Of a stretch of 64,000 nucleotides of DNA, positions 28,728 to 30,444 are shown piece by piece. Each line of letters begins with the position of its first letter. Positions within the stretch are counted from its first letter, which is position 1. The stretch comes from Escherichia phage vB_EcoM_ASO1B: sequence record MZ726792.1. One strand, 5' to 3'. Position numbers and translations under genes: made by a program. Under the pieces are notes generated by a model that searched no databases, had not been told where the DNA came from, and saw only the letters and a list, made by a program, of their open reading frames with translations.

Positions 28728-28806
28728 GGGAGATTGACGGCAACTTGGTAGACCTATCTCGCTTAGAACGAGATGCTTGAGGGTTCGAATCCCTTGTCTC
28801 CTACCA
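28728..28806 (+). tRNA. tRNA with Leu anticodon TAG, short variable region
   Basis: acceptor GGGAGAT/GTCTCCT, anticodon stem TCTCG/CGAGA loop CTTAGAA, T-arm GAGGG-TTCGAAT-CCCTT, CCA. Confidence 0.6.
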
Positions 28807-28813
28807 AATTAAT

Positions 28814-28889
28814 GCAGGTGTAGCAAAATGGTTATGCGGCTGACTCTTAATCAGTAAGACGATGGGTTCAATTCCCTCCACCTGTACCA
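28814..28889 (+). tRNA. tRNA-Lys (anticodon CTT)
   Basis: acceptor GCAGGTG/CACCTGT, anticodon loop CTCTTAA, T-loop TTCAATT, CCA; paralogous to Lys-TTT gene. Confidence 0.6.
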
Positions 28890-28895
28890 GACATT

Positions 28896-28971
28896 GGGGA
28901 TGTAGTTTACATGGTTAAAACATAAGTTTTGCAAACTTAAGTACAGGGTTCAATTCCATGCTTCTCCACCA
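28896..28971 (+). tRNA. tRNA-Ala (anticodon TGC)
   Basis: anticodon stem TAAGT/ACTTA loop TTTGCAA, D-stem GTTT/AAAC, T-loop TTCAATT, CCA; acceptor has one mismatch. Confidence 0.55.
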
Positions 28972-28977
28972 ATTAGT

Positions 28978-29052
28978 GCATCCATAGTTTAAACGGGAAA
29001 ATTACAGTCTTCCAAACTGAGGTTGAGGGTTCGATTCCCTCTGGATGCTCCA
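28978..29052 (+). tRNA. tRNA-Gly (anticodon TCC)
   Basis: perfect acceptor GCATCCA/TGGATGC, T-arm GAGGG-TTCGATT-CCCTC, anticodon loop CTTCCAA, CCA. Confidence 0.7.
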
Positions 29053-29059
29053 AATTAAT

Positions 29060-29135
29060 GCTCCTATCGTATAATTGGCTATTACGGTTGCCTTGTAAGC
29101 AACTTATCAGGGTTCGAATCCTTGTGGGAGCACCA
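29060..29135 (+). tRNA. tRNA-Thr (anticodon TGT)
   Basis: acceptor GCTCCTA/TGGGAGC, anticodon stem GTTGC/GCAAC loop CTTGTAA, CCA. Confidence 0.7.
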
Positions 29136-29230
29136 ATTCAGAGGTCAAGTGAAAGACCGCTGGTGTCAACTGAAGACCGTAACAAATTCCACGGAGTTGA
29201 GTTAGCGGCACAACTTCAGACCTCTTTCAT
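29136..29230 (+). ncRNA. stem-closed structured spacer (AGAGGTC ... GACCTCT) with internal GAAGACCGT motif
   Basis: terminal 7-bp complementarity; internal motif related to modules 1-4. Confidence 0.3.
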
Positions 29231-29305
29231 GCTCGCTTAGTTTATATGGTAAAACATCACCCTTACAAGATGAAGAAAAAGGTTCAAGTCCTTTAGTGAG
29301 TACCA
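29231..29305 (+). tRNA. tRNA-Val (anticodon TAC)
   Basis: acceptor GCTCGCT/AGTGAGT, D-stem GTTT/AAAC, anticodon loop CTTACAA, T-arm AAAGG-TTCAAGT-CCTTT, CCA. Confidence 0.65.
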
Positions 29306-29306
29306 T

Positions 29307-29384
29307 GTTCCAGTATCCCAATTGGCAGAGGATGCAAGCTCAAACCTTGTATTAGTGACGGTTCGAATCCGTCTTGGAACACCA
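29307..29384 (+). tRNA. tRNA with Leu anticodon CAA, short variable region
   Basis: acceptor GTTCCAG/TTGGAAC, anticodon stem GCAAG/CTTGT loop CTCAAAC, T-arm GACGG-TTCGAAT-CCGTC, CCA. Confidence 0.6.
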
Positions 29385-29389
29385 ATTTT

Positions 29390-29465
29390 GCAGGATTAGT
29401 TCAAATGGATAGAGCAACAGTCTACGAAGCTGTTAATAGGGGTTCGAATCCCTTATCCTGCGCCA
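29390..29465 (+). tRNA. tRNA-Arg (anticodon ACG)
   Basis: perfect acceptor GCAGGAT/ATCCTGC, anticodon stem ACAGT/GCTGT loop CTACGAA, CCA. Confidence 0.7.
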
Positions 29466-29482
29466 GATAAAAAGGTGATACT

Positions 29483-29725
29483 ATGCAAACATTAACAGTA
29501 GTTGAACATGAAAACTGTGAGAATATTGAGTTTGTCAGGGTCATTGGTGTTGAACACCACATTTTCTTAAAAGTAGGGTACTTATGTGACCCCGCTAGAG
29601 TAGAAAGATTTATACGTGATTGTTTTGGTGGTAGACAGCTAAAGAGTGTTATTTTTGAGACAGTTTTACCAGAAGGTTTAGAAACGAATAATAACATTTA
29701 TCTCCTTACAAGGATTAGACGATGA
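29483..29725 (+). CDS. hypothetical protein embedded in tRNA array
   Basis: 80-aa ORF, SD AAGGTG upstream. Confidence 0.4.
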   Translation: MQTLTVVEHENCENIEFVRVIGVEHHIFLKVGYLCDPARVERFIRDCFGGRQLKSVIFETVLPEGLETNNNIYLLTRIRR

Positions 29726-30279
29726 GATATTTAAAATATGCTTCATGGATTTTCCTAGCTTTGCTAGAACCATTAGCAGCAACCTTAGCAGTTATCTTAG
29801 CACCTTTCGTAGTTCCATTTTACAGTGAGAAGAAAGGCCACTTACCTTTCGGATTTAGATGGATGGAGACATATGACAACCCAATTGATGGTGACGAAGG
29901 TCATATCGAACGATGGGCTAAGATTAGAAAGATTGGTAAGCTGGGTGTCTACATGCAGAGAGTCGGATGGCTCTGGAGAAACAAAGCTTATAACTTCTCT
30001 TACCATGTATTAGGAAGAGATGTAAAAGATGTTACTAAGTGGAAAGGTAATATCAACGTAAGTTCTGACCCTGAAGATAATCAGACAGGTTATCTCCTAA
30101 TGTGGAACAGTAATGCTTGGGGATTATTCGCTTTTATCCCATCAATTAAAGTCTTTGGTAAACAATTTTACTGGAGAATTTATATTGGGTGGAAGCTAAA
30201 AAGTGTTGTCCCAGAAGAAAGAGCATTCTCAAGGGAAAGAGTTATGTTGGCATTCTTTATTCATCCACTAAGAAAGTAA
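29722..30279 (+). CDS. hypothetical membrane protein embedded in tRNA array
   Basis: 185 aa; N-terminal TM segment IFLALLEPLAATLAVILAPFVVPF; Trp-rich. Confidence 0.45.
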   Translation: MRYLKYASWIFLALLEPLAATLAVILAPFVVPFYSEKKGHLPFGFRWMETYDNPIDGDEGHIERWAKIRKIGKLGVYMQRVGWLWRNKAYNFSYHVLGRDVKDVTKWKGNINVSSDPEDNQTGYLLMWNSNAWGLFAFIPSIKVFGKQFYWRIYIGWKLKSVVPEERAFSRERVMLAFFIHPLRK

Positions 30280-30287
30280 AGATTTAA

Positions 30288-30363
30288 AGGGGATTAGTTT
30301 ACAAGGTTAAAACCTCGGTCTTTGAAATCGAAGAAGTTGGTTCAATTCCAACATCCCCCGCCA
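30288..30363 (+). tRNA. tRNA-Gln (anticodon TTG)
   Basis: T-arm GTTGG-TTCAATT-CCAAC, anticodon stem TCGGT/ATCGA loop CTTTGAA, CCA; A1-C72 mismatch. Confidence 0.6.
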
Positions 30364-30365
30364 AT

Positions 30366-30444
30366 GCTCCATTACTCCAATTGGCAGAGAGGCCAGACTT
30401 AAAATCTGTGTTATGTATCGGTTCGAATCCGATATGGAGTACCA
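30366..30444 (+). tRNA. tRNA with Leu anticodon TAA, short variable region
   Basis: acceptor GCTCCAT/ATGGAGT, anticodon loop CTTAAAA, T-arm ATCGG-TTCGAAT-CCGAT, CCA. Confidence 0.6.

Follow-up and report, generated by a model that had tools for sequence, protein, structure and literature searches.

Three tRNA-Leu genes without a long variable arm in the tRNA cluster of Escherichia phage vB_EcoM_ASO1B

The window analyzed here, i.e., a stretch of 64,000 nucleotides (nt) from Escherichia phage vB_EcoM_ASO1B (MZ726792.1), belongs to a Felixounavirus and is 100% identical to phage vB_EcoM_ASO1A. ARAGORN identified 25 tRNA genes in a single cluster on the plus strand, and the GenBank annotation of MZ726791 comprises the same 25 tRNAs (Table 1). 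Three of these genes carry leucine anticodons, and the coordinates and lengths assigned by ARAGORN were exactly those of the original prediction, which had been made from the letters of the sequence. All three are already annotated as tRNA-Leu in the vB_EcoM_ASO1A record, and their homologues are called tRNA-Leu by tRNAscan-SE-based annotation. We searched the three small ORFs located within the cluster for a helper function and found only DUF7338, DUF7217, and one unknown PHROG; none of the three contains a synthetase-like or tRNA-modifying domain. The same cluster also contains an aberrant tRNA-like element (28063 to 28144).

Table 1. Leucine tRNA genes and associated features of the phage tRNA cluster (window coordinates)
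Feature	Position	Strand	Description	Source
tRNA cluster	26489..31640	+	25 ARAGORN tRNAs; all amino acids but Trp; three small interspersed ORFs	
tRNA-Leu(UAG)	28728..28806	+	79 nt including encoded CCA; anticodon 28764-28766	ARAGORN, Rfam
tRNA-Leu(CAA)	29307..29384	+	78 nt including encoded CCA; anticodon 29341-29343	ARAGORN, Rfam
tRNA-Leu(UAA)	30366..30444	+	79 nt including encoded CCA; anticodon 30400-30402	ARAGORN, Rfam
ORF inside cluster	29483-29725		Without tRNA-related annotation	
ORF inside cluster	29722-30279		DUF7338; without tRNA-related annotation	
ORF inside cluster	30731-31465		DUF7217; without tRNA-related annotation	

By the textbook rule, tRNA-Leu has a long variable arm everywhere but in animal mitochondria (review PMC9976931). 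When parsed by hand with a 5-bp anticodon stem, the variable region of the phage genes comprised 5 nt in tRNA-Leu(UAG) (UGCUU, 28774 to 28778), 6 nt in tRNA-Leu(CAA) (AUUAGU, 29351 to 29356), and 7 nt in tRNA-Leu(UAA) (GUUAUGU, 30410 to 30416), all of it unpaired, as opposed to the >10 nt folded as a stem-loop that define class II tRNAs. Consistently, the ARAGORN cloverleaf drawings and bracket strings lacked a variable arm in all three genes, and Rfam RF00005, which describes the canonical cloverleaf with acceptor, D, anticodon, and T arms, gave each gene a score exceeding the gathering threshold of 29 bits (CAA, 44.0; UAA, 47.5; and UAG, a marginal 30.5 bits), with 4 to 5 nt in the variable region of the aligned UAG gene. 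Likewise, RNAalifold analysis of 22 short tRNA-Leu sequences, including these three, yielded a plain cloverleaf with compensatory changes in 18 of 21 pairs and a variable region of 7 unpaired columns. Single-sequence minimum free energy folding, a method uninformative for tRNAs, gave z-scores of -0.5 to -1.8 and misfolded the UAA gene. The Ser (90 and 93 nt) and Tyr (88 nt) tRNAs of the cluster do possess the extra stem-loop. Hence, the short variable regions of the Leu genes and the long arms of their Ser and Tyr neighbors, both originally folded manually, were borne out by automated prediction.

Could the short variable region be an artefact of boundary or fold prediction that hides a long arm in an alternative fold? 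We regard this reading as practically untenable, since the armless fold was obtained by three independent methods, the 75 to 76 nt preceding the CCA are too few to accommodate an arm of 10 or more nt plus four regular stems, and tRNA neighbors flank the CAA gene (Val ending at 29305, Arg starting at 29390) and the UAA gene (Gln ending at 30363, the next Gln starting at 30450) at distances of only 1 to 7 nt on either side. Downstream of the UAG gene, a Lys gene starts at 28814. Because the adjoining tRNA genes are so near, longer Leu genes have no space. The long-arm fold that prediction software might have produced was looked for in the output of ARAGORN, Rfam, and RNAalifold and was absent; given the agreement of these tools and the abutting genes, it is effectively refuted.

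As described in earlier work (PMC9976931, PMC6614811), the LeuRS enzymes of E. coli and Aquifex read A73, U8-A14, A15-U48, G18G19/U55C56, and the geometry of the D loop. In all three phage genes, the encoded CCA is preceded by an A (i.e., A73), the variable loop ends in U48, and the T loop reads UUCGAAU, making G18:U55, G19:C56, and U54:A58 possible. Similarly, among 100 short tRNA-Leu from viral contigs, A73 was present in 92% and U48 in 98%. The CAA and UAA genes also display U8-A14, A15-U48, and G18G19 followed by an extra D-loop nucleotide (A20a), and their D arm (U-A-YYC-CAAUUGGCAGA-GRR) corresponds column for column to the E. coli pattern U-G-GNG-RAAUYGGUAGA-CNC. More specifically, a 3-bp D stem (UCC/GGA in CAA, CUC/GAG in UAA) closes the same 11-nt loop, CAAUUGGCAGA, in both; the UAA gene additionally has G1:U72 and, where its anticodon stem begins at the top, a C27.U43 mismatch. 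The UAG gene, which likewise has G1:U72, exhibits this set of elements only in part: its D arm is irregular, with a 3-nt linker (UGA), a weak stem (C.U, G-C, G-C), and a 12-nt loop (CAACUUGGUAGA) containing one extra C, and it has A37 versus the G37 of CUN-reading tRNA-Leu in E. coli. With this weak D stem, the UAG gene is the least certain of the three, and its homologue is flagged as tRNA-OTHER/pseudo in one GenBank record (one pipeline).

The original prediction had also raised the possibility that the identity of these tRNAs differs from their anticodons. The layout of the D arm is that of E. coli leuZ, leuX, leuW, and leuQ (a 3-bp stem plus N-AAUUGG-Y-AGA, the motif being separated from the anticodon loop by 9 nt), and we judged isotype by a contingency test of D-arm spacing versus anticodon in IMG/VR tRNAs bearing the D-loop motif. 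A 9-nt spacing was accompanied by a Leu anticodon in 55 of 64 tRNAs, whereas an 8-nt spacing was accompanied by a non-Leu anticodon in 87 of 88 and by a Leu anticodon in 1 of 88 (Fisher, 1.3e-30). The 3:70 pairs are G-C, U-A, and U-A, with no G3:U70, and we detected no other anticodon-independent synthetase identity marks in the three genes. A divergent identity thus found no support. We therefore consider it highly improbable that these tRNAs are charged with another amino acid and recode Leu codons during infection. The missing class II arm would suit such recoding, as would the 9 of 64 short tRNAs that combine Leu spacing with a non-Leu anticodon, meaning that body and anticodon are not fully locked. 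However, body architecture and discriminator are both of tRNA-Leu type (A73 rather than G73), the long arm for SerRS and the anticodon-independent marks at 3:70 are missing, and synthetases that depend on the anticodon would refuse UAG, CAA, and UAA. Moreover, recoding of ~8 to 10% of codons would be lethal for phage proteins that are conserved with relatives devoid of these tRNAs, such as the Hafnia phage SarahDanielle (Ounavirinae), in which no tRNA-Leu was found in the 12.6-kb stretch around the tRNA cluster.

In anticodon (UAG, CAA, and UAA) and loop, the three genes conform to the type I tRNA-Leu of Fan et al. (2019), i.e., a Leu anticodon on a body whose short variable loop counts 5 nt or more, nucleotide 48 among them (PMC6614811); leucylation by the LeuRS of the cell, the other hallmark of this type, is predicted. 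The suggestion that they are compact Leu tRNAs was therefore right in substance, and they are a fresh instance of a known but rare type. With A9 and C13, the core of the CAA and UAA genes departs from that of class II tRNAs (G9 and a purine at position 13). Likewise, long-armed viral tRNA-Leu had G9 in 63/63 and R13 in 62/63 cases, versus A9 in 46/65 and C13 in 51/65 short ones.

The short design is maintained in three genera of the Ounavirinae, and its stems show compensatory changes. The CAA gene is identical in Mooglevirus ESh21, where the surrounding region is only 85.6% identical. In Kolesnikvirus, the acceptor stem (GGCGUAA) and the anticodon stem of the CAA homologue are different while the architecture is unchanged; in general, none of the acceptor and anticodon stem sequence is shared with the Kolesnikvirus homologues, yet pairing is retained. 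Between genera that share ~85% identity in the surrounding DNA, the UAA gene varies at 1 nt. Of 272 phage records, 215 match this gene at 99% identity or more, as compared with only 1 of 348 records for the surrounding 3.4 kb; conservation of this kind points to selection. For the UAG gene, homologues in 19 Felixounavirus-like IMG/VR contigs form two allele families that display compensatory anticodon-stem changes (UCUCG/CGAGA, CCUCG/CGAGG) and a double change from C13..G to U13..A. Across 271 distinct short tRNA-Leu, every stem position was represented by 4 to 7 pair types, a figure biased toward paired stems because the genes were detected by ARAGORN. Given the conservation of the design across genera and the near identity of the UAA gene among so many records, the CAA and UAA genes are neither chance folds nor decayed copies, and the same probably holds for the UAG gene. 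Pseudogenes would show loss of pairing or of conserved nucleotides and conservation at the neutral level, whereas these genes outconserve their flanks and carry compensatory changes; the UAG gene taken alone shows a weak D stem and a pseudo flag in one record. A BLAST search of 5,426 complete E. coli genomes with the CAA gene returned no match at E values up to 10, and therefore no near-identical prophage copy exists there, the search being too insensitive for a comparison with host tRNA-Leu.

As to whether the host enzyme can use such tRNAs, earlier studies indicate that removal of the arm is tolerated by E. coli and Aquifex LeuRS (PMC9976931, PMC2377443). In Aquifex, its removal mainly lowers affinity (Yao 2008, PMC2377443), and arm-less E. 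coli and Aquifex tRNA-Leu are described as chargeable provided that A73 and the D/T elbow are intact (Larkin 2002, Asahara 1998, Tocchini-Valentini 2000, via PMC9976931). The phage tRNAs have precisely these features; the engineered molecules are class II bodies from which the arm was deleted in the laboratory, at a cost in affinity, whereas the phage class has a co-adapted core, i.e., A9, C12-G23, and C13 paired with the G of AGA, in place of the G9, G12, and R13 of class II.

The closest natural counterpart is less reassuring. Streptomyces coelicolor type I tRNA-Leu(CAA) is efficiently leucylated by its own LeuRS but is not charged at all by E. coli LeuRS, which has been described as charging only type II tRNA-Leu (Fan et al. 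2019, PMC6614811). Accordingly, the concern of the original prediction that compact Leu tRNAs would be unusual for recognition by host LeuRS is answered in part, as the recognition elements are present and arm removal is tolerated, but it retains force as regards the failure of the E. coli enzyme on the Streptomyces tRNA. The latter resembles the phage tRNAs in its 5-nt variable loop, A73, U8-A14, and coexistence with long-armed tRNA-Ser, and its loop (ACAGC) is similar to (N)CAGU, a frequent loop type among the phage and array tRNAs. It has C48, in contrast to the U48 of the phage genes and of nearly all short viral tRNA-Leu, which may be the reason that E. coli LeuRS failed. In addition, Streptomyces has one chromosomal short isoacceptor beside four long-armed ones and a LeuRS with special LSD features, whereas the phage has short ones only and its hosts are Enterobacterales; this Streptomyces tRNA, the one bacterial exception studied, has been called rare and dependent on a special LeuRS (PMC6614811). 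Animal mitochondrial tRNA-Leu (e.g., human mt-tRNA-Leu(UUR)) similarly has a short variable region, relies on A73 and A14 for identity, and is recognized without an arm (PMC9976931), but its D/T-loop interactions are relaxed, as in mitochondrial tRNAs in general, and its LeuRS is a dedicated mitochondrial enzyme, in contrast to the canonical G18G19 and UUCGAAU of the phage tRNAs and their bacterial host LeuRS. Type II tRNA-Leu of E. coli and of phages T5 and T4 have anticodons, D-arm spacing, A73, and U48 in common with the genes studied here, as well as G1:U72 in the UAA species and a role as decoding supplement, but are 85 to 87 nt long, with a variable stem-loop of 12 to 15 nt, G9, and R13. 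T5 was ruled out as a precedent because its tRNA-Leu(UAG) is 85 nt and long-armed. The tRNA-Leu of T4 is long-armed as well.

The Leu codons of 40 ORFs in the window were dominated by UUA (30.5%) and CUU (26.7%), followed by UUG (13.1%), CUG (12.5%), CUA (10.5%), and CUC (6.6%). In E. coli, CUG is dominant and accounts for roughly half of Leu codons. We conclude that the three genes are probably functional type I tRNA-Leu that are charged by host LeuRS and serve the UUA, UUG, and CUN codons, of which the phage makes heavy use. According to this model, the tRNAs would be transcribed from the phage tRNA cluster and end-processed, with CCA already encoded. Host LeuRS would then leucylate them through A73, U8-A14, A15-U48, G18G19 docked on U55C56, and the Leu-specific D-arm geometry (i.e., one extra nucleotide 3' of G18G19), elements in none of which the long arm is involved. 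On the ribosome, the UAA species would decode UUA and UUG, the CAA species UUG, and the UAG species CUA and other CUN codons, all of which are much more frequent in the AT-rich phage than in E. coli. The genes, their fold and conservation, the recognition elements, the codon bias, and the broad distribution of the design are observed, whereas expression, charging by E. coli or Salmonella LeuRS, and ribosomal use are inferred.

The failure of E. coli LeuRS on the Streptomyces tRNA, the one natural type I tRNA-Leu of bacteria to have been assayed, is in line with a reading in which the phage tRNAs are transcribed but un- or poorly leucylated in E. coli, being decaying genes or non-translational tRNA-like RNAs. 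They could then act as decoys, mark processing sites in the polycistronic tRNA transcript, or give rise to fragments. The borderline Rfam score and pseudo flag of the UAG gene and the presence of at least one aberrant tRNA-like element in the cluster point the same way. We nevertheless consider this unlikely, since comparison between genera reveals conservation or covariation of the anticodons, A73, U48, the D and T loops, and the four stems, conservation of the UAA gene greatly exceeds that of the adjacent DNA, and the choice of isoacceptors suits phage codon usage; a pure decoy or processing signal needs no intact Leu anticodon on a Leu-type body. If the tRNAs were indeed uncharged, a well-used group of therapeutic phages would contain conserved uncharged look-alikes requiring another explanation.

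Short tRNA-Leu are frequent in viral contigs and bacterial tRNA arrays, hundreds having been retrieved by two simple pattern scans; phages and mobile tRNA arrays are much richer in them, and they are unreported for core bacterial tRNA sets. At 186 loci with short Leu tRNAs, Ser tRNAs were long in 102 of 102 cases and Tyr tRNAs in 51 of 55, while Leu tRNAs were short in 302 of 336. Arm loss is thus specific to tRNAs whose synthetase can do without this feature. Armless tRNA-Leu accordingly emerges as a regular feature of phage tRNA sets, and the tRNA-OTHER or pseudo flags that annotation pipelines place on such genes could be corrected. Should E. coli LeuRS charge them, the statement that this enzyme uses only type II tRNA-Leu would have to be revised, Leu-only arm loss would constitute a clean natural experiment on the arm dependence of synthetases, and a natural compact scaffold would be at hand for studies of LeuRS identity and for engineering of leucine or suppressor tRNAs.

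Evasion of tRNA-directed defences by sequence changes is an established theme for phage tRNAs, and the arm might have been shed to escape host toxins or nucleases that choose tRNAs by the long arm while charging by LeuRS was kept. We judge this improbable; it would be an addition to host-charged type I tRNA-Leu rather than a replacement. For E. coli and Salmonella, we know of no tRNA toxin that is specific to class II. T5 and T4 infect the same hosts with long-armed tRNA-Leu, the long-armed Ser and Tyr tRNAs of the same phages would stay vulnerable, and neutral deletion plus LeuRS tolerance accounts for the pattern without any defence. Conversely, the enrichment of short Leu tRNAs in phages and mobile arrays and the confinement of arm loss to Leu would be expected from such evasion, in which Ser and Tyr could not follow because their synthetases need the arm. 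According to a 2026 preprint, the abortive-infection toxin AbiEii, like MenT3, probably prefers class II tRNAs with long arms, and the Schlafens of eukaryotes act against viruses by targeting type II tRNAs. It is accordingly conceivable, if quite doubtful, that reshaping toward class I (a core of A9, C13-G22, and a bulged A) hides the tRNA-Leu of phages and mobile arrays from AbiEii/MenT-type nucleotidyltransferases or from putative nucleases that choose class II tRNAs by their arm; Leu decoding would then survive inactivation of host tRNA-Leu.

Full-text literature searches returned no description of short-armed tRNA-Leu in phages, and the term "type I tRNALeu" only in Fan et al. 2019 (PMC6614811). 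In the searched text of the array papers, including the L-array paper (PMC8421152), the missing Leu arm is not remarked upon. Bacterial tRNA arrays resemble the phage cluster in being dense, mobile, and phage-linked, with ~20 to 40 tRNA genes, often homing endonucleases, and short tRNA-Leu inside, but they are chromosomal or plasmid-borne, whereas the window belongs to a lytic phage genome. For instance, a genome scan of Cylindrospermum revealed an array of 26 tRNAs in 8 kb, 5 of which are short Leu tRNAs.

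The window proved 100% identical to Escherichia phage vB_EcoM_ASO1A (MZ726791; genus Felixounavirus, subfamily Ounavirinae), in whose record the 25 tRNAs that ARAGORN predicted on the window, the three tRNA-Leu among them, are already annotated. ARAGORN returned the Leu genes with the coordinates and sizes (78 to 79 nt) of the original prediction, and no extra arm was present in its cloverleaf drawings or bracket strings for any of the three. An extra stem-loop is clear in both Ser genes (90 and 93 nt) of the same array and in its Tyr gene (88 nt), as had been claimed. Software prediction had been proposed as a check, and no long-armed fold came up. 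As neighboring tRNA genes begin or finish only 1 to 7 nt away, there is no space for a longer Leu gene.

Features of the tRNA cluster in the window (variable regions parsed with a standard 5-bp anticodon stem; gathering score of the Rfam tRNA model, 29 bits)
Feature	Coordinates	Strand	Length	Sequence	Basis
tRNA cluster, 25 genes	26489-31640	+			ARAGORN
tRNA-Ile/tRNA-Ser gap	27815-28383	+	570 nt		annotated gene absent
tmRNA match	27872-28061				Rfam 16 bits
tRNA-like element	28063-28144	+			Rfam 31.7 bits
tRNA-Sec match	28290-28364				Rfam 23 bits
tRNA-Leu(UAG)	28728-28806	+	79 nt incl. encoded CCA	variable region UGCUU	ARAGORN; Rfam 30.5 bits
tRNA-Leu(UAG) anticodon loop	28762-28768			CUUAGAA
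tRNA-Leu(CAA)	29307-29384	+	78 nt incl. encoded CCA	variable region AUUAGU	ARAGORN; Rfam 44.0 bits
tRNA-Leu(CAA) anticodon loop	29339-29345			CUCAAAC
DUF7338 ORF	29722-30279	+
tRNA-Leu(UAA)	30366-30444	+	79 nt incl. encoded CCA	variable region GUUAUGU	ARAGORN; Rfam 47.5 bits

RNAalifold analysis of 22 diverse short tRNA-Leu yielded an armless cloverleaf, 18 of whose 21 pairs show compensatory changes. Every stem position showed 4 to 7 pair types across 271 distinct short tRNA-Leu from the window and loci L001-L311, a count that leans to paired stems because these sequences came from a pairing-demanding program. A prediction artefact is vanishingly unlikely as the source of the short variable region and was excluded. 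In 92 of the 271, among them the UAA and UAG genes of the window, the acceptor stem is closed by G1:U72, as it is in E. coli leuZ (UAA).

To assess leucine identity, the window genes were structure-aligned to E. coli leuZ, leuX, leuW, and leuQ/P/V/T. In the CAA and UAA genes, the D-arm layout is that of host tRNA-Leu, i.e., U8, a 3-bp D stem, and an 11-nt loop (N-AAUUGG-Y-AGA), with 9 nt from the D-loop motif to the anticodon loop, U48 as the last variable position, T loop UUCGAAU, and A73. The UAG gene has A73, U48, the T loop, and the 9-nt spacing in common with them; its linker is 3 nt and its D loop 12 nt, and its D stem consists of just two G-C pairs beside a C.U mismatch. Determinants of E. 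coli leucyl-tRNA synthetase (LeuRS) comprise A73, A14, A15-U48, G18G19 with U55C56, U54-A58, and an extra D-loop A20a, and the sequence and folding of the arm are dispensable for recognition (PMC9976931, PMC6614811). The window genes lack the long arm that defines type II tRNA-Leu; they fit the type I tRNA-Leu structure and the E. coli LeuRS identity set, the latter only in part for the UAG gene with its weak D stem.

In place of isotype scoring, we used a spacing test on all short tRNAs of IMG/VR loci with the AAUUGGYAGA motif, in which the scan pattern left both the anticodon and the spacing from motif to anticodon loop free. Leu anticodons accompanied the 9-nt spacing in 55 of 64 cases, and non-Leu anticodons the 8-nt spacing in 87 of 88 (Fisher p = 1.3e-30), so body and anticodon agree. 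Moreover, the window Leu genes have no G3:U70, G73, or any other anticodon-independent mark of another synthetase. The suggestion that their identity might differ from the anticodon found no positive evidence, and charging with a different amino acid is very unlikely.

One GenBank record flags the UAG homologue as tRNA-OTHER/pseudo and calls the other two Leu. In Salmonella phage DaR-2019b (L338), the tRNA-Leu(UAG), tRNA-His, and tRNA-Cys homologues (431-505, 2259-2331, and 3266-3338) are labeled tRNA-OTHER pseudogenes by one annotation pipeline; since the His and Cys homologues are flagged too, it is several cluster tRNAs, and not Leu alone, that score poorly with cellular models. The anticodon loop of tRNA-Leu(UAG) has A37 versus G37, an m1G site, in E. 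coli CUN readers, and A37 is roughly as frequent as G37 among viral-contig short tRNA-Leu with G36. That of tRNA-Leu(CAA) has C38, so it is without the A36-A37-A38 motif used for i6A37.

Comparison with related phages, also proposed originally, revealed the short design in other Ounavirinae, namely Mooglevirus and Kolesnikvirus. In Mooglevirus ESh21 (78, 78, and 79 nt), the CAA gene is identical to that of the window and the UAA gene differs by 1 nt, yet the surrounding region is just 85.6% identical. Those of Kolesnikvirus Rouille and SB18 (77, 78, and 77 nt; anticodons CAA, AAG, and UAA) have acceptor and anticodon stems wholly unlike the window genes yet paired, with the D arm, A73, and CCA alike. 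Of 272 phage records, 215 match the UAA gene with at least 99% identity, a level that only 1 of 348 records reaches over the surrounding 3.4 kb. The UAG gene occurs as two allele families across 19 Felixounavirus-like IMG/VR contigs, marked by compensatory anticodon-stem changes and, in the D arm, by a double change from C..G to U..A. Given the conservation excess and the conserved anticodons matched to Leu bodies, a non-translational or decaying role is unlikely. The Kolesnikvirus tRNA-Leu(AAG) (Rouille, L002 2192-2269; SB18, L003 6242-6319) occupies the position of the Felixounavirus UAG isoacceptor; its A34 is unusual for bacteria, and tRNA-Leu(AAG) is also found in several IMG/VR contigs.

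Leu codons in 40 long window ORFs (window G+C, 38.8%) are UUA (30.5%), CUU (26.7%), UUG (13.1%), CUG (12.5%), CUA (10.5%), and CUC (6.6%). In E. coli, CUG makes up about half of Leu codons, and tRNAs for UUA, UUG, and CUA are scarce; these three codons are exactly what the phage isoacceptors cover. In the simplest mechanism, host LeuRS would charge the phage tRNA-Leu and thereby supplement codon supply. On sequence grounds, functional leucylation is probable, with higher confidence for the CAA and UAA genes than for UAG.

Natural type I tRNA-Leu(CAA) of Streptomyces coelicolor is well charged by its own and human mitochondrial LeuRS but not at all by E. coli LeuRS, and Streptomyces LeuRS was described as the sole prokaryotic LeuRS taking both types (Fan et al. 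2019, PMC6614811). That tRNA has variable loop ACAGC, hence C48, whereas the phage genes have U48, and the A15-U48 pair is reported to be necessary for E. coli LeuRS (PMC9976931, PMC6614811); this difference may reconcile the two cases. E. coli and Aquifex tRNA-Leu lacking the arm are still substrates (PMC9976931; Yao et al. 2008, PMC2377443).

To gauge the spread of the short design, we ran scans that are motif-biased samples rather than a census. An IMG/VR pattern of Leu-type D loop, 28- to 33-nt gap, and T loop matched at least 120 stretches, with about 56 tRNA-Leu of 74 to 79 nt among the matches listed; opening the gap to 28 to 58 nt, which lets long-armed genes match, gave 30 long and 19 short tRNA-Leu in the first 80 stretches. 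There were hits in cultured phages of Aeromonas, Lactobacillus, Myxococcus, and Rhodococcus as well. A prokaryote scan (one genome per species; Leu-type anticodon loops and short spacing only) found at least 121 short tRNA-Leu. Among the matches listed, 43 lay where 8 kb held 10 or more tRNAs, such array-type loci occurring in Cylindrospermum, Microcoleus, Micromonospora, and Chryseobacterium; others stood alone, above all in Actinomycetota. This suggests that Streptomyces type I tRNA-Leu is one instance of a far wider class. Lone copies occur in many Actinomycetota chromosomes, e.g., Mycolicibacterium (L245, L255, L265) and Corynebacterium (L229, L271); L197 and L198 are further prokaryotic examples. 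Arrays of cyanobacteria and Chryseobacterium hold multiple copies, with 5 short Leu within 26 tRNAs in 8 kb of Cylindrospermum (L204).

Across 186 loci with short tRNA-Leu, the arm was long in 102/102 tRNA-Ser and 51/55 tRNA-Tyr, and tRNA-Leu was short in 302/336; arm loss there is specific to Leu. The arm is measured by seryl-tRNA synthetase, not by LeuRS (PMC9976931), and Leu-only loss is the pattern expected if the arm goes missing solely from tRNAs whose synthetase can do without it. Counter-defence, a speculative reading of the short arm that is compatible with leucylation, draws on the enrichment of short tRNA-Leu in mobile elements and on a preprint in which AbiEii, an abortive-infection toxin, is suggested to favor class II tRNAs; it is improbable, as T5 tRNA-Leu keeps its long arm and so do the Ser and Tyr tRNAs of the phage itself.

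Viral long-armed tRNA-Leu have G9 (63/63), G12 (61/63), and a purine at 13 (62/63), and most viral short ones have A9, C12, and C13; because these core nucleotides differ, the short class is more than a plain deletion. A pair between nucleotide 13 and the G in the conserved AGA is possible for 89% of the short class (0 of 1,000 shuffles as high) versus 13% of the long class, and the two positions switch jointly between the window UAG alleles. We read the short-class core as a putative fourth pair in the D stem with a bulged A after it, i.e., an apparently class I-like core retaining the Leu-specific extra nucleotide.

The nearest known counterparts are Streptomyces type I, animal mitochondrial, and engineered armless E. 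coli tRNA-Leu, and a 2023 review describes the long arm as universal except in animal mitochondria (PMC9976931). Full-text literature, with subscription journals mostly outside, yielded no account of short-armed tRNA-Leu from phages or tRNA arrays, so an earlier mention is possible. The window genes are already annotated and their kind is known but seldom recognized; what is new is to have recognized their class, with its breadth and core signature.

Three ORFs (an unknown PHROG, DUF7338, and DUF7217) break the cluster, and none showed a tie to tRNA metabolism. The DUF7338 ORF has DNA-level homologues (~68 to 73% identity) in T4-like phages of Escherichia, Klebsiella, Yersinia, Enterobacter, and Citrobacter, one of them labeled holin. 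An annotated promoter lies close to the start of the tRNA-Ile/tRNA-Ser gap, and the weak tmRNA and tRNA-Sec matches therein are possibly stable RNAs or tRNA remnants, as annotated in the T5 tRNA region, or chance. In the tRNA-like element, which neither ARAGORN nor the GenBank record lists, the acceptor stem spans 7 bp and a 7-nt linker takes the place of the D arm; the anticodon loop is CUUCUAA (UCU, Arg/AGA), and the variable region measures ~23 nt. The element also has a T arm and A with an encoded CCA. Its 17-nt anticodon stem-loop sequence recurs in five other Felixounavirus-like IMG/VR contigs, and Mooglevirus ESh21 has a regular cloverleaf tRNA-Arg(UCU) at the matching position (L001 3770-3843).
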